A stretch of 64,000 bases of DNA from a virus (taxonomy: Duplodnaviria; Caudoviricetes). The notes under the pieces are model-generated. The model ran no database searches. It was given only the letters and a program-made list of their open reading frames with translations, and was not told the DNA's origin. The position numbers and the translations under genes were made by a program. Numbering within the stretch: the first letter of the stretch is position 1; each line of letters starts with the position of its first letter. Of this stretch, positions 17,435 to 34,769 are shown one piece after another. The stretch covers positions 17,472 to 81,471 of the IMG/VR virus record IMGVR_UViG_3300017569_000030. One strand, given 5' to 3'.

Positions 17435-17492
17435 CATAAGACAGCTGGAGTGATAAAAAAGTTGTTTTATTGTTGCACAAAACACAATCAAA

Positions 17493-25657: not shown

Positions 25658-26689
25658 ATGGAAGAAGGAATTAATGATTTAGACTTTTTAGATGAAGTCG
25701 ATGATTTTGACACAGGTGAAGACACCAATTCACAAAATAATTTAGAATAGGAAAATTCTGGTGAAGAAAGTAATCCTATTTTTAATCCAGATGAAGTAAC
25801 GAGCGATGAATCTCTTATTTCTTCATTGTTACAATTGAAAGGAATAGATGATAGATCCAAAATTAAGTTTGAAAATGAAGAAGGATCTATAGAAGAAGTA
25901 GATTGGAACACATTAAGCAATGAAGATAAAGTTAATATTTTGAAATCGGATGATCAAAATAATGACTTAGATGATTCTGAAATTCAGTTAATCAATTCTA
26001 TTCGTAATAGTGGTATGTCTCCTGCAGAATACTTACAATATGTCACTAATGATGGAATTAACCATTATATACAAAATAACCAATCAAATGGTTATCAGTT
26101 TACGGTTGACCAATACAGTGATGAAGATCTGTTTAAAGCAGATTTTATAAGTAGAATGGGAGATGTTACTGAAGAAGAAGCTCAAGAGGCTCTTGAAAAA
26201 GCACAATCTAATGAAACTTTATTTAAGAAATAGATTGATGCTATTAGAAAAGAGTATAAAACGATTGAGGAAGAGAATCTTAGATAGGAGCAAATAAGTC
26301 AAGAACAAATAGCTCAAGAACAATATGATCAATTTGCTAATCAAATTGGAGATGAAATAAGTAATTTTACAGAATTTTCTGGGTATGATTTAAATTTAGA
26401 AAATGATGATATGCAAATGCTGTATGATTTCATAACAGGAACAGATGCAGCAGGTAATAATTATTTTGCTAAAGCATTATCAGATCCGAAAACTCTTGTA
26501 CAAGCAGCTTGGTTCACTTTGAATGGTCAGCAAATGATAAATGATATAACAGAGTATTTTCAAAAAGAAATTACCAAAGTAAGAAAAGAAAGTTATGAAA
26601 AGGGTAAATTAGATGCAAATAAACCTACTAATACTGTCTATCGCAATAAAGGACATTAGTAGGAAGATTATAATTTAGACGATTTTTAA
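25658..26689 (+). CDS. Acidic protein upstream of MCP, putative scaffold (343 aa)
   Basis: Very Asp/Glu-rich; position directly before MCP; TAA 26687-26689 after TAG-TAG. Confidence 0.75.
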
Positions 26690-26700
26690 TTAGAAATAAT

Positions 26701-29700
26701 ATGTTAGTTGCAAATTTTACAAGTAGAATACCTACTATGGGTCTGCTGTAAGTTTGGCCCCTGTTAATAGTGATATTAATATGCAAACTCTGTGAATTGC
26801 TGGGATTCCTTCAAATATTTGGAAAATCAGCAGTTTTATCTTTGTGAAAAGGTAAAATTCAACGACTAATGTATAACACGAGCACAGAGGTTCTAATTTA
26901 GTTAGAATATGATATAGTCTGAGCTTACATGATGATAAAATGTAAGAATTGTTAGATAAAGAGCTAACAAGGTAACAAAATTTGCAAACTAAAACATACG
27001 AGGATTGGTCAAAGTACCTGGGCAGTAAGCCCCACCGTCTTGGTGTAGTAGCTCGTATGTACACTGATAATACTTTGAACTTTATTACAGATGGTCTTAG
27101 GAACGTCTATTACAAGGATGAGAAAGCAGATCAATTCTAGCTTTCTAGTTCTTTATTGTTTGAGTGGAATGTAGAAACAAATAATATCAAACACATAGAG
27201 TTCGCTGAAGTACCAGCTGAAACTGGAGAAAACGGAAATGAAATAACGATGGCGTTCAAAGAGAACTATTATCAGAAGTATGACATCTTTAGAATTGATA
27301 AGACGAAGCAACAGTGTCAAGTTGTTAGCCGTCCAATTCGCAAGCGTGATGATTACTGGGAAGTACAAGTTCGTTTGATTGATAATAACTTTGATACGAT
27401 CCTTGATACAGATGGATGCCAGATTGGTGATACTACAACGTTCCAATCTGTTGCAGTACCCGAATTGAACGAGGAAGGTTTAAATTTAAGATAGCTTTCC
27501 TCCGTTAAGTTAGTTGCTTAATGAAAAATTAAATAAATATTTCTAATTGCTGGAATGCTAAGTTCTTATTGAATATGCCAATCAGCAGCAAAGCCTTAGA
27601 AAATATAAGCTCAAAGAGAAATACTAAGGAATGTTCAACGACTAGTCTAGATAGACGTAGGGGAAATCAACCCCGAAATGGAATAAATCTAAAATTTAAA
27701 TACAATGAAATATATAGTATATCAAACGACCAATAAGGTCAATGGAAAAATTTATATTGGAGTACATAAAACCGAGACTCCGGATGATTTCGATGGATAT
27801 TTAGGAAATGGAATCTATATTTATCGACCTTCTAGTTATATGCATCCAAAAACGTATTTTCAGTATGCTGTAAAGAAATATGGTATTAAAAACTTTATTC
27901 GTACTACAATTAAGGTTTTTGATATAGAAGCAGATGCTTATAAAATGGAAGCAGACTTGGTAAATGATGAATTTATACAAAGAGATGATACTTATAACTT
28001 AATTTTGGGAGGCAAAGATGTATCTCAATTTATGGTTAAAGTTTATATGTATGATCTTAATGGAAATTATGAAATGGAGTTTGAAAGCTTAATTGCTGCA
28101 GCAAAATATTTGAATCCTAACGCAAAAGGAGGAGGACATTTACCTAGAGCAATAAAGCATAGGCATCAATTTCTTGGGCATCAATTTTCGTATGAAAAGG
28201 TTGATAATATAGGACCTATAAAAGCCATGAAAAATCGAACTCATGTTGAAAAACCTTATACAGGAGGGAAAGTAGGAAGATTCGATAAAGAAGGAAACCT
28301 ATTAGAAACGTTTGAAACAATGACTGACTGCGTTAAAGCAGGATATAAAAATGCAAAGTTAGTTGCATTAGGAAAAAGAAATATATGTAAAGGATTTGTA
28401 TTTAAATATTTAGATTAAGATATAGTCTGAACAGTATAGAAACATACTGATTAACAATAATTGTATTCAAAATTCCAATCTCAGATGGAGTTGCATTAGA
28501 TATTAATTACGGTGCAACTTCGAGTTCGCTCAAAATAAACTCCTTTAATTGCTGGGATCTCTCTATGAGACAATCAGCAGCGAAGATTCTACAATAGAAT
28601 AACGTTCAACGACTATCGAAAGTATAGGTTAAATACCGAATAAACGAGTAGAGTACACTTATCATAAGTGGAAACAGGGAGCACCTTTATAAGGTGAAGA
28701 TATAGTCTAAACTTATATGTGAATATAAGAATAATTACGTAATTTCATGACAACATTCCGTTGCGATGCTAGTTGGTCTAGCTTATATGCAATTCAAGAG
28801 AATGTATTTATGAGTATCTGTGATGATAAGGATAAAACAAAGACCGAAGGCGTATATAAAATGCTCAAGAAGGAAAAAGAATTACTCGATACCTTCATGT
28901 ACGCCATGAATACAGGGTGGAAGTAAGCTAGCCCTGATTAAATTCTTCTAATTGCTGGAAACCTCAAAAGGCAATCAGCAGCAAAGATTTAAAAACTAGT
29001 GACAAACAGTTTTAAATAATGTTCAACGACTATCCGTGATAGGATAAGTAAAATTTTACTGAAATGGAGAATAATTTTAAATATATAGTATATCAAACAA
29101 TAAATATTAATAATAATAAGATTTATGTGGGGGTGCATAAAACAAAAGATCCTTCTATATTCGATGGATATATAGGAAATGGTGTAAATATCTATCATCC
29201 AAGTACTTATGTAAAGCCAAAATATCCTTTTCAATATGCTGTAAAAAAGTATGGGACATCAAGTTTCAGAAGATCGGTGTTATATATTTTTGATAATGAT
29301 AAAATGGCATATAACAAGGAGGCAGAAATAGTAAACGAAGAGTTTATTAAACGCTCTGATACATATAATGTAATTTTAAGTGGAAAAATACATCCTACTT
29401 ATTATATTCGATCTTGTATATATCAATTTGATTTACAAGGTAATTTAGTAAAAAAATGGAATGATATTTATGATGTTTCTGAATTTTTATGTACTTGGAA
29501 AGAATCAGTATATTCAGCAATTAGACACAAATCTCGATTGTATAATTTTTATTGGAGTTATTCTGATAGTATTAATCTTTCTGAATACTCTAGTCCAAAT
29601 GAATCTAGGAAAGTTTATCAATATAATAAGGATGGAAAGTGTATAGCAATTTATAATACTATTGGAGAAGCTGCTAGATATAATAATGTTCAACCAGGAC

Positions 29701-32700
29701 ATATAATAACTTATATTAAAGCAGGAACCTTTTCTAAAGGAGAATATTTCTATTCTTATGAACTATATGATGAGTATGTTTCAAAACCTAGATTAGATTT
29801 AAAAGGAAAGACATTATATTTATATGATTTGGATGGAAATTTTATTAAATCGGAATTTATAGTAGATTTTAAACGAGAATTTGATATTCATACATATAAA
29901 GAAATTTCTAATATAATTCTAAATAAATCTAGCTTAAAAGGATTTCAAATTAGATTAGAATATACTGAAACAATAGAGAAATATTCTCCAAAAAATAAGA
30001 AACGTGCCGTAGAAGTTTATACTATTGACGGTTCTTTAGTTGGTGAATTTGAAAGTGTTACTCTTGCTTGCAAAACTCTTAAACTTGATTCATCTACTGT
30101 ATCTAAAATATTAAGAGGAGTAGCAAAAACAACCAAAGGATATACTATAAAATATAAAAATTAAAGATATAGTCTAAACAATATAGAAATATATTGATTA
30201 ATATATATTGTATGCTTTAACAAAGGCAATATAGATGTGAATTAACTTACGGTTCACAATAAACTCCTTTAATTGCTGGGACCTCTTACAGTGTAAGACA
30301 ATCAGCAGCGAAGATTCTACAATAGAATAACGTTCAACGACTATCGAAAACATAGCATTTATTGCAAAGAAGTGAGTAGAGTACATTAAAAATAATGGAA
30401 ACAGGGAGCATCTCTAAATAAGAGATGATGATATAGTCTAAACTATATAGTAATATATAGCTAATATATTGGGTAAACCAACAATCACAGATCCTAAACT
30501 CCTGTGTTGGGATCTTGCAGCGTGAGCTGTATAACAAATAACTCCTTGAATTGCATGAAACTCCTAAATTGTTAGGACAACCTGCAGCTAAGCCTTTTAT
30601 AGGAAAGTTCAACGACTATCGAAAGCGTAGGTATAAATACTGAGTAAGTGAGTAGAGTAGAGAGTAAAATCTCGAAGTGGGGAGCGTCTCTAAACAAGAG
30701 ATGATGATATAGTCTAACCTATATAGTAATATATAGTTAATATATGGACACAGGTCGCGGTATTTATATAGGTGAGGGTAGAGTATCTGCCCCTTAGTAT
30801 CGTAAGATACTTCGATCAGCTGCTTAATTCGGTGAACCCTGAGATGGGAATACCGAGCCAAGTAAGATAATAAAATTATCTGGGCGTGTGTAACGACTAT
30901 GATATATTATAAATTAAAATTTTCATCAATAATTAATAATTATTAGTATGCAAAAAAGAAAAAAATCACTGTTAATTAGCTTAGTATTAGGTGATGGACA
31001 TATTGCTAAATCTGGAAAGGGTAATTGCTTGCAAATTACTCATAGTATTAAACAAAAAGAATATTTTGAATGGAAACGCCAATTAATTGCAGATCTTTTA
31101 GATTGTAATTTACCTGGAGTTTATCATAGAGAGGATTCAAGACATAACGAATTTTCTCTTAATAAAAGTCATAGATATTTTCGTATCATTAGAAAATGGT
31201 TATATAAAAATGGTATTAAGCGATTTAATAAAAAAATATTAGATTATATTACCGCAGAGGGATTGGCTATCTGGTTTATGGATGATGGTAGTCATTGTGT
31301 AAATCGCAGAAAATCTACAGGAAAGGTAATGAGTCATACTTTTAAATTATATACATTTACTAATGAGGAAGACACAGATAATATTATTCAAATGTTTAAA
31401 GAAAAATTTGGCATTAATGTTTATAAATTAAAATATATAAAAAAGGACGGTTCTCTTAGTTATTATTTACAATGGAAAACAAGAGAAGGTAGAAAGTTTT
31501 GTAATTTAATTCGTCCTTATGTTATCCCGTCAATGCAATATAAATTATTGCAACCAGGAGAATAATATATCTTTAACAGCAGCCAACCAGAAATGGTTGA
31601 AGATATAGTCTAAACAAATACAAATTAAAGTATTTGATTAACAAAATTGTTGATACCTCAAATAGAAGCCGCATGTAACAAATATTGTTACAATAATAAA
31701 CCAACATTACCTCTGTTTAACCAGATTATGAACGATATGGCTGACAAAGCCCAGTCTGATACTGGTGGGCACTGGGTGTTTATAGTAAACCGCAAATTAT
31801 GGAATGATGTGAACACAGTTCTTGGTGAGTATCTCGCTAATTATAGAACTGATGGTACTTATATGTATTCCAAGTCTGCAAACAAAGGTATGGGTGGTTA
31901 TGTCAAGGTCGGAGCAACCTTCGACACATATATTTACGCCGGTGAATTGATTGCCGCATAAATTAAAAATAATTTATGAAAATTTATTTAATTGCTGGAA
32001 CATCTTGAAGTTTAATAAGCTATAAAGGAATTAGTAATAATAAACTTGAAAGCTCAAAAATTATTAAATATAAGACAATCAGCAGCGAAGCTTCTAAACT
32101 ACTAAAGCATGAAGAACGTTCAACGATCATCCCTTTGGGAGTAGATTAATATATTAATCGAAATAATAAACATCTTATGGAATTAAAAAATATAGTTTAT
32201 ATAACAGTTAACTTATGTAATAGTAAATTTTACTTTGGGGTTCACAGAACTAATCCAGAAGTTTTTGACGGATATATTGGTGCAGGAATCTACAGACAAT
32301 CAAATGCCACATTAGATACTGCCTTTCATAAAGCTGTGCGAAAATATGGTTATGATAATTTTAAAAGAACTATAATTGCTATTTTTCCAGATACAGAAGA
32401 AGGAAGAGAGTAGGCTTTTAATTTAGAAGCAAGTATAGTAACTAAAACTTTGATTAAAAGTAAAAATTGTTATAATTCTGCTTTAGGAGGGCAGGGAAGT
32501 ACAAATATAGATACAAAACGTGTTTATATGTTTAATTTGAAAGGAAATTTTTTAAGAAGTTTTTCTAGTATTAGAGAAGCAGCAAACTTTATTGATTCTA
32601 CAAATGAATATAATGTTTTAAAAGCTATTAGAAATAATTGTTTGGGAAAAAATAGTAACAGCAGTTATGGTTATTTTTGGAGTTATAAGAAAAAATTTGA

Positions 32701-34769
32701 AAATAATAATCATTGTAATAGAAAAGTAGCACAATACACAATTTCTGGAAAATTTCTTAGATATTATGATAGTATGACTGAAGCAGAACAAGAGCTTCAA
32801 ATAAGTACAATATATCAAGCTATTATTAAAAAATTTACTTCTGGAGGATTTCAATGGAGATATTATGATGGTGATACATCTGATATATCGACTTTGATTT
32901 CTAGGAAAAATAAAAATTTAGTATTACCTATTAAAATGTTTTCTAAAGATGGAACATTTATAAAAGAGTATAACTGTGTAAACGATTGTGTAAAAGAAAA
33001 TCCAAATTTATCTGCCAGTTAGATAAATAGAGTTTTAACCAAAATAATTAAATCTCATAAAGGTTTTACTTTTACATACAAAGATGAAGATATGATCTAG
33101 TCTATTTAGAAATAAATAGTATATCGAATGAAATTTCGTTTGTGGTAGATAGAGCATTAACTCGTGAATATCCAGATAAGGGTTATGGAGTATGCATCGA
33201 TCTTACCGCAGATAAAACATCTGGAACTCCTGCTGTTGCAAAATTCAGTATCACTGGAAAAGATTTCATGACCAACAAACTTATAGGCGTAGGCGGGTAT
33301 GATGGAAAAAGTTCTGGTGAAGTTGCAAGCAATGTAGCAGGTTCTAAGCTAATAATGATGGGCTTAAAAATATTTATTTGACAGCGTAGGTCCATCAATA
33401 AAAAATTCTTTTAAGTGCTGGAAAGTAGCATAACTGATATTAACTTGTTAAGTTTTAATAATAATATTAGTGCTATAATCAGCAGCCAAGATGTATTTGT
33501 AATTCCTTTAGGAATTAATACACAAGGTTCAACGACTAGGCGCAAGCCATAGATTAATTTATTAAAATTAAATCGAAATGGAGAATAATCAAATCAAATA
33601 TATTGTATATTGTACTACCTGTACAATTAATAAATTCATTTATATTGGTTATCATAAAACCAAAAATCCAGATATTTTTGATGGATATATAGGAAATGGA
33701 ATTTATATAAATAATCCAAGTACCTATAATAATCCTAAACAAAAATTTCAATATGCTGTAAAGAAATATGGTCCTTCTAATTTTATAAGAAGTACAATTG
33801 CCGTATTTAATACCGAAGAAGAAGCGTTAGATTTAGAAGCGGAAATAGTAAATGAAGAATTTCTTAAACGGTCTGATGTATATAACGTGGCATTAGGAGG
33901 TTTAGGAGGGAATTGGATAATAACAGCACATAAAACTTATCAATATGATTCTGAAGGAAACTTTTTAAATGAATATGTATCTATTAAAGATGCTTCTATG
34001 AAAATTAACCGATCTTTCAGAAGTTTATGGAGGGCTATTAATGATAAATGTAAGTGTGGAGGATTTTTTTGGACAGAAACGAAATTTGATAAATTAGATT
34101 TATCAAAAATGAAATTATATGAAGGATTACACACGATACCTACTTTTCAATATGATAATTTGGGAAATTATGAATGTTGTTATGATTCAATTTCTGATGC
34201 TGGAAGAATATTAAATATTCATTCAGCAAATATTTCTAGAGCAATTAAATTAGGAGAAATATGTAAAAATAAGTATTTTACAAATATCTATGCTCCTAAC
34301 TATAGCATTTCAAAAGATAGACAAATTAAATCCTTTGAAATACACCAATATGATTTAGCAGGTAAATATATTACCTCATATAAAAATATGCAAGAAGCTA
34401 AAAATAAATTAAAAATTAAGGCAAATATTTATACTGCTATTAAATTGGGGCAAACGTGTGGAGGTTATCAATGGAATTTTGAAAAGTTGCCTCAAATGCC
34501 TCCTGTTAAATCTAAATCTGGAAAAGCTCGAAGAGTTGGTAAATTTGATAAAAATAATAATCTTGTGGAAGAATATAAGTCCTTAGCAGAGTGCAAAAGA
34601 ATTAATGGAGCTTCAGTAGAACACGTTATTAGGGGTAGAAATGAATTTTCTAAGGGGTACAAATATAAATATTTAGATGATTAAAGATATAGTCTGAAAT
34701 TTAGTCAATTTTGACGCTGGTGTAGCGGCTTTCACTCCTTATAGGTCAGTAATTGTCCGTGAGGCTTAA
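26701..34769 (+). CDS. Major capsid protein, 10 exons: 26701-26742, 26985-27479, 28464-28496, 28738-28918, 30211-30242, 30472-30495, 30747-30779, 31650-31943, 33127-33364, 34714-34769 (1428 nt, 475 aa)
   Basis: Exons join in frame: ..PTMG|QTKT..PELNEEG|YSKFQSQMELH|RNFMTTFR..MNTG|LCFNKGNIDVN|GKPTITDP|DTGRGIYIGEG|LIPQIE..YIYAG|NEISFVVDRAL..KLIMMG|YAGVAAFTPYRS, resembling crAss-like MCPs. Each 5' junction has a P1 helix ending in U.G. Confidence 0.9.
26743..26984 (+). ncRNA. MCP group I intron 1 (242 nt, no ORF)
   Basis: P1 GGGU/GCCC; P10 AGUUUG/CAAACU; AATCAGCAG, TTCAACGACTA, GATATAGTCT. Confidence 0.9.
27480..28463 (+). mobile_element. MCP group I intron 2 (984 nt) with GIY-YIG endonuclease
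   Basis: P1 GAGGAAGGU/GCUUUCCUC; core motifs flank the ORF; ends AATAATTG. Confidence 0.9.
27705..28418 (+). CDS. GIY-YIG homing endonuclease with NUMOD1-like repeats (237 aa)
   Basis: YIVYQTTNKVNGKIYIGVH, YLGNG, EADLVN..YNL. Confidence 0.87.
   Translation: MKYIVYQTTNKVNGKIYIGVHKTETPDDFDGYLGNGIYIYRPSSYMHPKTYFQYAVKKYGIKNFIRTTIKVFDIEADAYKMEADLVNDEFIQRDDTYNLILGGKDVSQFMVKVYMYDLNGNYEMEFESLIAAAKYLNPNAKGGGHLPRAIKHRHQFLGHQFSYEKVDNIGPIKAMKNRTHVEKPYTGGKVGRFDKEGNLLETFETMTDCVKAGYKNAKLVALGKRNICKGFVFKYLD
28497..28737 (+). ncRNA. MCP group I intron 3 (241 nt, no ORF), apparent terminal A
   Basis: P1 GAGUUGCAU/GUGCAACUU; P10 AUUACG/CGUAAU places the 3' splice site after A28737. Confidence 0.85.
28919..30210 (+). 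mobile_element. MCP group I intron 4 (1292 nt, phase 1) with GIY-YIG endonuclease
   Basis: P1 CAGGGU/GCCCUG; core motifs; terminal G30210. Confidence 0.88.
29064..30164 (+). CDS. GIY-YIG homing endonuclease with NUMOD1-like repeats (366 aa)
   Basis: YIVYQTININNNKIYVGVH; repeated YQ(F/Y)DxxG units. Confidence 0.87.
   Translation: MENNFKYIVYQTININNNKIYVGVHKTKDPSIFDGYIGNGVNIYHPSTYVKPKYPFQYAVKKYGTSSFRRSVLYIFDNDKMAYNKEAEIVNEEFIKRSDTYNVILSGKIHPTYYIRSCIYQFDLQGNLVKKWNDIYDVSEFLCTWKESVYSAIRHKSRLYNFYWSYSDSINLSEYSSPNESRKVYQYNKDGKCIAIYNTIGEAARYNNVQPGHIITYIKAGTFSKGEYFYSYELYDEYVSKPRLDLKGKTLYLYDLDGNFIKSEFIVDFKREFDIHTYKEISNIILNKSSLKGFQIRLEYTETIEKYSPKNKKRAVEVYTIDGSLVGEFESVTLACKTLKLDSSTVSKILRGVAKTTKGYTIKYKN
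30243..30471 (+). ncRNA. MCP group I intron 5 (229 nt, no ORF)
   Basis: P1 UGUGAAU/GUUCACA; core nearly identical to intron 3. Confidence 0.9.
30496..30746 (+). ncRNA. MCP group I intron 6 (251 nt, no ORF)
   Basis: P1 AGAUCCU/GGGAUCU; P10 CCUGUGUU/GACACAGG. Confidence 0.9.
30780..31649 (+). mobile_element. MCP group I intron 7 (870 nt) with LAGLIDADG-type endonuclease
   Basis: P1 GGGU/GCCC; different core (AATTCGGTGAA..AATACCGAG..GTAACGACTA..AAGATATAGTCT); terminal G31649. Confidence 0.87.
30948..31565 (+). CDS. LAGLIDADG-family homing endonuclease (205 aa)
   Basis: Two helices LISLVLGDGHI and GLAIWFMDDGS. Confidence 0.87.
   Translation: MQKRKKSLLISLVLGDGHIAKSGKGNCLQITHSIKQKEYFEWKRQLIADLLDCNLPGVYHREDSRHNEFSLNKSHRYFRIIRKWLYKNGIKRFNKKILDYITAEGLAIWFMDDGSHCVNRRKSTGKVMSHTFKLYTFTNEEDTDNIIQMFKEKFGINVYKLKYIKKDGSLSYYLQWKTREGRKFCNLIRPYVIPSMQYKLLQPGE
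31944..33126 (+). mobile_element. MCP group I intron 8 (1183 nt) with GIY-YIG endonuclease
   Basis: P7 is GATCA (32125-32129)/TGATC (33093-33097); terminal G33126. Confidence 0.85.
32177..33115 (+). CDS. GIY-YIG homing endonuclease (312 aa with TAG=Gln)
   Basis: IVYITVNLCNSKFYFGVH; track ORFs 32177 and 32450 join through TAG 32411; first TAA at 33113-33115. Confidence 0.8.
33365..34713 (+). mobile_element. MCP group I intron 9 (1349 nt, phase 1) with GIY-YIG endonuclease
   Basis: P1 UGAUGGGCU/GGUCCAUCA; P10 CAGCGU/ACGCUG; terminal G34713. Confidence 0.88.
33578..34684 (+). CDS. GIY-YIG homing endonuclease with NUMOD1-like repeats (368 aa)
   Basis: YIVYCTTCTINKFIYIGYH; EAEIVNEEFLKRSDVYNV shared with the 29064 ORF. 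Confidence 0.87.
   Translation: MENNQIKYIVYCTTCTINKFIYIGYHKTKNPDIFDGYIGNGIYINNPSTYNNPKQKFQYAVKKYGPSNFIRSTIAVFNTEEEALDLEAEIVNEEFLKRSDVYNVALGGLGGNWIITAHKTYQYDSEGNFLNEYVSIKDASMKINRSFRSLWRAINDKCKCGGFFWTETKFDKLDLSKMKLYEGLHTIPTFQYDNLGNYECCYDSISDAGRILNIHSANISRAIKLGEICKNKYFTNIYAPNYSISKDRQIKSFEIHQYDLAGKYITSYKNMQEAKNKLKIKANIYTAIKLGQTCGGYQWNFEKLPQMPPVKSKSGKARRVGKFDKNNNLVEEYKSLAECKRINGASVEHVIRGRNEFSKGYKYKYLDD

Follow-up and report, generated by a model that had tools for sequence, protein, structure and literature searches.

In the present study, we analysed a window of 64,000 nucleotides from a virus of the Caudoviricetes (positions 17,472 to 81,471 of the IMG/VR record IMGVR_UViG_3300017569_000030), in which the major capsid gene (26701-34769) is interrupted by nine group I introns. 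The third of these, intron 3 (28497-28737; here and below all features lie on the + strand), is 241 nt long and free of open reading frames (ORFs); its core appears to be of IA type, with probable additional helices separating P7 from P3'. Its last base, the omega position (28737), is A where G is expected. We consider it likely that intron 3 is a true group I intron, of IA type, in which A has replaced the terminal G by mutation and which is still precisely removed, with CAU|CGU joined in the message. Natural omega-A group I introns have already been published, and intron 3 adds another case to this rare kind. What is added here is a comparative proof of the junction, a set of built-in omega-G controls and evidence that the intron moves as passenger of a homing intron.

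The exon junction and the last base of intron 3

The exon/intron map was obtained by placing the capsid protein of an intronless homologue (L010) on the window with tblastn and then a junction solver; the solver rows WIN q266, L014 and L017, which were wrongly chained high-scoring segment pairs, were left out. Exon 3 (28464-28496) has 33 nt and encodes YSKFQSQMELH, and exon 4 (28738-28918, 181 nt) begins with Arg-Asn-Phe. In the 18 relatives whose junction is uninterrupted, the protein reads Gln-(Met/Val)-Glu-(Arg/Leu/Lys)-His|Arg-Asn-(Phe/Tyr/Ala)-(Met/Ile)-Thr, and the Arg after the junction is invariant (CGC/CGT/CGA/AGA). Since this Arg is invariant in relatives lacking the intron, the mature message must read CAU|CGU. 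The boundaries cannot be slid, because the end bases differ on both sides: the first bases of the intron and of exon 4 are T and C, respectively, and the last bases of the intron and of exon 3 are A and T. Enumeration of all in-frame donor/acceptor pairs gave no solution with U(-1) and G(omega) that retains His-Arg-Asn-Phe, as any U...G pair removes or substitutes conserved residues. The last base of intron 3 is A28737. The intron therefore lacks the terminal guanosine of group I introns and is a natural omega-A case, known here from DNA, with its junction fixed by the 18 intronless homologues. The first-pass annotation, made from the sequence of the window, had placed the omega base at A28737 and the start of exon 4 at 28738; both assignments are borne out and all its coordinates were re-read as correct, and the junction is now fixed independently of the reading-frame argument. 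A register with the 5' site after U28497 and C28738 as the omega base (His-Cys-Asn) was ruled out by the invariant Arg.

The pairing elements agree with this junction. The 5' splice site follows the U of the P1 U.G wobble, as in group I introns: GUUGCAU (28490-28496), the last 7 nt of exon 3, pairs over at least 7 bp with GUGCAAC (28512-28518), with the wobble at U28496.G28512. The internal guide sequence (28505-28518) also contains the P10 strand AAUUACG (28505-28511), which forms seven contiguous Watson-Crick pairs with the first 7 nt of exon 4, CGUAAUU (28738-28744), including two G-C pairs beside the junction, and pairs perfectly only if exon 4 starts at 28738. The location of P10 given by the first-pass annotation stands, and its length is corrected from 6 to 7 bp, the second longest P10 among the gene's 9 introns. 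At the 3' end, the tail AAUAAUU (28730-28736) precedes A28737, and the likeness noticed earlier between AATAATTA (28730-28737) and the end of intron 2, AATAATTG (28456-28463), is confirmed. By analogy with the sister introns ending in ...AUUG, U28735-U28736 and the A's of J7/9 may form a P9.0 pairing. A perfect palindrome of 12 nt (28733-28744, AATTACGTAATT) lies across the 3' splice site, and the sequence of the P10 guide strand recurs as its first 7 nt.

The same A was read on independent assemblies. The ending ...AATAATTA|CGTAAT was found on 7 separately assembled contigs from at least 5 samples, two project series and two phage lineages (A at the omega position of L001, L031-L033 and L047-L050). 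Three contigs belong to the lineage of the window, namely the window record, Ga0315759_100037 (100% identical over 3.7 kb) and Ga0315758_105058. The other four, Ga0315757_1000070, Ga0315758_100391, Ga0187364_100341 and Ga0315756_101120 (= IMG/VR 3300029966_000107), belong to a second lineage; they differ mutually by 0.3-0.5% and all keep the A. Pattern scans that allowed any omega base for introns ending at this site detected no G version of intron 3 in IMG/VR or in the JGI metagenome contigs; in IMG/VR the matches were limited to the L001 contig and a single omega-G intron with an endonuclease ORF, and in the JGI contigs to the contig of that omega-G intron. A scan with the P9 hairpin of intron 3 returned only unrelated introns of other genes.

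Ribozyme core and the G-ending sister introns

The Rfam model RF00028 (gathering score 50) matches 28495-28729 with 85.4 bits (E 2.5e-20) over its full length (1-253), and P3, P4, P5, P6, P6a and P8 were recovered. Two siblings in the same gene serve for comparison: intron 5 (30243-30471), an ORF-less paralogue with 81% identity to intron 3, and intron 6, both of which end in G. Against these two, 9 of the 48 predicted pairs of intron 3 are compensatory, with two-sided changes that preserve pairing in P4, P5, P6, P6a, one helix between P7 and P3', and P8. The three introns do not differ in J6/7, P7 or the P7' strand, and at the single difference in J8/7 intron 3 holds the Rfam consensus base. 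The interval between P7 and P3' (~60 nt, 28616-28675) contains two hairpin-forming stretches with compensatory changes relative to intron 5. P7 is canonical, as had been read before: GACUA (28611-28615) pairs with UAGUC (28703-28707), which is followed by J7/9 UAAA (28708-28711) and the P9 hairpin (28712-28729). Its pair G28611-C28707 is the same as in the omega-G sisters; by homology with the Tetrahymena/T4-type consensus, we take it to be the guanosine-binding pair equivalent to Tetrahymena G264-C311.

All the other 8 introns of the gene end in G, and about 13 distinct introns that could be reliably mapped in the capsid genes of relatives all permit a U...G solution. An apparent non-G end of intron 1 in L013 was an artefact of an Asp in the reference, since the canonical U/G solution yields Asn at a variable residue. 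As intron 3 is a sibling of introns 5 and 6, both G-ending, G is the ancestral base and A the derived one. At the exact site of intron 3, other relatives carry two different endonuclease-bearing introns, ending in ...TTTTTG|CGTAAT (L028) and ...ATATTTG|CGTAAT (L041-43). The comparison of orthologous introns, which had been proposed as a check, thus gave A in every second-lineage copy of intron 3 and G in the different introns of the same site. The earlier statement that omega-G is nearly universal holds for the sister introns and has exceptions elsewhere (Coxiella, hexacoral mitochondria). The region of exon 3 is a hot spot of insertion, with four positions within ~35 nt across relatives (Gly|Tyr, Ser|Gln, GT|T inside the Val codon after Gln, and His|Arg; relatives including L028, L041-43, L044 and L046), and its introns all end in G, the window's intron 3 excepted.

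The following course of splicing may be proposed. In the first step, to judge from the intact canonical core, exogenous guanosine, bound in the unchanged G28611-C28707 site, would attack after U28496. In the second step, A would fit the guanosine pocket poorly. The unusually strong 7-bp P10 together with a short P9.0 (U28735-36) could offset this by keeping the phosphate between A28737 and C28738 in place for the 3' OH of U28496 to attack it at the catalytic centre. Compared with its omega-G sisters, intron 3 would probably ligate the exons more slowly, and hydrolysis at the 3' site and circularisation would be expected to be minor. Intron 3 is probably functional. A functional omega-A intron had been one of two options in the first-pass annotation; it is indirectly supported by the intact core with its compensatory changes, by selection on the exons and by transfer to a second allele (see below), from which splicing is inferred.

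Several points weigh against splicing of this kind. No compensating change is seen in P7 and, as the binding pair is still G-C, the guanosine pocket has not co-varied with the omega base. In Tetrahymena, the change of omega-G to A with an unchanged G-C pair reportedly impairs exon ligation severely. The 7-bp P10 is not unique, and since intron 6 combines a P10 of 8 bp with omega-G, its length is consistent with compensation and no proof of it. G28739, two bases downstream of the omega position, could compete as a cryptic site. The omega-A contigs all come from a few related sample series. A single copy of the capsid gene in the source record (81 kb) speaks for splicing, but this record is only ~49% complete and a second capsid gene may lie elsewhere. 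A search of reads gave 24 runs, each with only ~4% of the sampled words, and no RNA run with the locus; in four of the 24 that were mapped, only conserved ribozyme-core fragments of other organisms were recovered, with 28732-28920 uncovered.

Transfer of intron 3 between two phage lineages

Intron 2 (27480-28463), 33 nt upstream of intron 3, contains an intact ORF for a GIY-YIG homing endonuclease (27705-28418; PHROG 314 homing endonuclease, E 1.9e-28), and an ORF of 237 aa was likewise called in intron 2 of the second lineage. No ORF was found in intron 3, and the endonuclease gene nearest to it is that of intron 2. A block from ~27500 to 28768 is ~99.6% identical between the two lineages (5 differences in ~1270 nt); it takes in intron 2, exon 3 and intron 3 and reaches 30 nt into exon 4. 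The flanking exons, in contrast, differ by 10-12% (identity is 88% for exon 4 and ~90% for the last part of exon 2). Introns cannot by descent be better conserved than capsid exons, so the block was exchanged recently. Judged by these identities, intron 2, exon 3 and intron 3 have moved horizontally as one block, with the ORF-less intron 3 as passenger. The simplest route would be homing of intron 2 with co-conversion of its downstream flank. With regard to the marks of mobile introns, intron 3 has no endonuclease ORF of its own and shows mosaic identity that points to recent transfer, with a probably co-converted flank.

Over 279 capsid codons downstream of exon 3, the two lineages differ synonymously at 80 codons and non-synonymously at 39, with no frameshift or stop; as judged from these codons, purifying selection acts on the downstream capsid exons of either lineage. 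The establishment of the omega-A intron in a second capsid allele under such selection argues for splicing. At the same time, its linkage to a driving element, intron 2, means that a neutral or mildly handicapped omega-A allele could be carried along.

A stronger form of this idea is that the omega-A intron splices poorly and persists only through its linkage, over 33 nt, to an actively homing intron, by super-Mendelian transmission in mixed infections and with capsid protein possibly supplied by co-infecting relatives. The cassette-like transfer along with intron 2, whose endonuclease gene is intact, would suit this, as would the presence of both lineages in one sample (3300029967) and the guanosine-binding site without a compensating change; the phenotype reported for the Tetrahymena G414A mutant also counts in its favour. 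We nevertheless regard it as unlikely, although the best of the alternatives. Assembly gave omega-A as the consensus allele in at least 5 samples, the A is retained within each lineage despite the microdiversity of 0.3-0.5%, and the capsid exons downstream are still under purifying selection; a majority genotype could not have a strongly defective capsid gene.

Ligation at another 3' site is far less probable. The G's at 28739 and 28749 lie 2 and 12 nt downstream, the latter in frame, and cryptic 3' sites are known from Tetrahymena omega mutants. Use of G28739 would give CAT|TAA, a product that stops at once, as the first-pass annotation had foreseen in calling this site out of frame, and use of G28749 would give a capsid protein without Arg-Asn-Phe-Met. 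Against both stand the conservation of Arg-Asn-(Phe/Tyr/Ala; Val/His in some ORF products)-(Met/Ile) in all relatives and the P10, which is perfect only with the start at 28738.

Still more improbable is RNA editing, in which A28737 would be changed to inosine by a deaminase of the type of TadA, the bacterial tRNA adenosine deaminase, and the resulting omega-inosine would fit the guanosine pocket. TadA is said to edit some mRNAs at UACG in hairpin loops, and UACG, its core motif, occurs at 28736-28739 inside the palindrome 28733-28744. However, folding predictions gave no stable hairpin at the site (minimum free energy 0 kcal/mol for stretches of 23 and 41 nt), and the motif is a necessary by-product of changing G to A within AUUG|CGU. 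Finally, a sequencing or assembly error with G as the true base, the second option of the first-pass annotation, would need one base only and fits sister introns ending in ...ATTG, but it is excluded for practical purposes by the A on all 7 contigs, from at least 5 samples and two diverged lineages, and by the lack of a G version in the IMG/VR and JGI contig scans.

Known omega-A introns and the setting of the capsid gene

The intron Cbu.L1917 in the 23S rRNA of Coxiella burnetii reportedly ends in A and self-splices in vitro, and the odd intron there is said to be the upstream member of a pair, while phage intron 3 is the downstream member. Like Cbu.L1917 (Raghavan et al. 2007, J Bacteriol 189:6572), intron 3 is a group I intron of the bacterial world without omega-G and one of two introns around a short exon (34 bp in Coxiella, 33 nt here). 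In contrast, the host gene is an rRNA gene there and a phage protein gene here, and in Coxiella there is no evidence of a two-intron cassette moving between alleles. The Coxiella introns belong to subgroups IB2/IA3, which differ from the probable IA type of the phage intron, and exon skipping has been documented for tandem introns both in Coxiella and in phage Twort (PMC10136302). Such skipping motivates the thought, which we hold to be doubtful, that omega-A brings a benefit in this tandem-intron setting and is maintained for it, by safeguarding the accuracy of splicing in a gene with nine introns. If the intron 2 ribozyme used the 3' splice site of intron 3, it could skip the 33-nt, frame-neutral exon 3, and an A that is readable only with intron 3's own 7-bp P10 would block this skipping as well as 3'-site hydrolysis. 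If this were true, the recurrence in Coxiella of two introns around an exon of ~34 nt, one of them without omega-G, would be no coincidence.

The hexacoral ND5-717 intron is, like intron 3, a natural omega-A intron inside an essential protein-coding gene. Its exons are perfectly ligated in vivo, as seen by RNA-seq and reverse transcription PCR, with an efficiency lower than that of a neighbouring omega-G intron and with little hydrolysis or circularisation suggested (PMC8146996, PMC6545197). It differs from intron 3 in that it resides in a eukaryotic organelle, is strictly vertical and obligatory, has giant P8 insertions and sometimes undergoes back-splicing, whereas intron 3 is small, ORF-less and horizontally moving. 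Since accepted omega-A members have been published (PMC8146996), the lack of omega-G does not remove intron 3 from group I.

In its apparent core type, in the conserved CAACGACUA / GAUAUAGUC strands of P7 and in the probable extra helices after P7, intron 3 resembles the phage IA2 introns (Twort orf142; T4 td, nrdB and nrdD), with which the gene also shares several introns per late gene, micro-exons and sibling introns. Unlike intron 3, those introns end in G, and the capsid gene here has 9 introns against 3 in Twort orf142. Engineered Tetrahymena ribozymes with G264A:C311U and omega-A are said to demonstrate that the active site can use A at the 3' splice site; unlike in these, where the pair was changed to A-U, the pair here stays G-C.

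The terminal G is treated as obligatory in group I catalysis, and well-documented natural exceptions show how far P10 and P9.0 can replace the recognition of guanosine in the second step. Intron 3 is well suited to study this, as it has only 241 nt and its own gene offers a built-in control, an omega-G paralogue with 81% identity; the G-ending introns at the identical site are further controls, and intron 3 has demonstrably become established in two capsid alleles. Carriage of an ORF-less intron by an endonuclease-bearing neighbour is a route that could spread sub-optimal ribozymes. For annotation, the terminal G cannot be used to set intron boundaries in recoded, intron-dense crAss-like phages.

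The capsid gene comprises 10 exons and 9 introns, with 1428 coding nt and one in-frame TAG read as Gln, and encodes 475 residues. Rfam at gathering level recovers 4 of the 9 introns, including the match at 28495-28729. The match of the protein to the PHROG major head protein is weak; its identity is 54-57% to records of uncultured human-gut phages and ~21% to annotated major head proteins of Crassvirales. The relatives are phages of 130-175 kb. The intronless capsid protein had no match among solved structures, and by megablast 26000-32000 had none among GenBank phages. Large crAss-like phages of the Zeta group have genomes of 145-192 kb, stop-codon recoding and several group I introns that interrupt the capsid gene (Yutin et al. 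2021, PMC7886860). The gene described here fits these large, recoded and intron-dense phages; the capsid gene of that report has five fragments, and terminal nucleotides are not discussed there, whereas the present gene has ten exons, and one of its introns ends in omega-A.

The large ORFs of the window are nearly all open only if TAG is read as Gln, and the phage uses a recoding of the code-15 type. The in-frame TAG in capsid exon 2 (27138-27140) is aligned to CAG/CAA (Gln) in relatives, and relatives use TAG where the window has CAA/CAG, for example in Lys-Phe-TAG-Ser-Gln. Four micro-exons of 33, 32, 24 and 33 nt are present (28464-96, 30211-42, 30472-95 and 30747-79). Five introns of the gene carry endonuclease ORFs, four of them of GIY-YIG type and one LAGLIDADG (30933-31565). 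The GIY-YIG ORF of intron 8 (32177-33115) is continuous only with four TAG codons read as Gln and the ORFs of introns 2 and 4 are free of TAG, which suggests that some intron endonuclease genes are adapted to the recoded genetic code of the phage. Intron 8, which stays below the Rfam gathering score, has a variant 3' region of P7 (33095-33110), with GATATGATCTAGTCT in place of GATATAGTCT. Intron 4 of the window (28919-30210, inserted after ...ACAGGGT) has 1292 nt and an endonuclease ORF of 366 codons. At the same site the second lineage has an ORF-less intron of 226 nt (L001:1449-1674) with the same 5' end, so that an endonuclease gene looks to have been gained or lost inside one intron.

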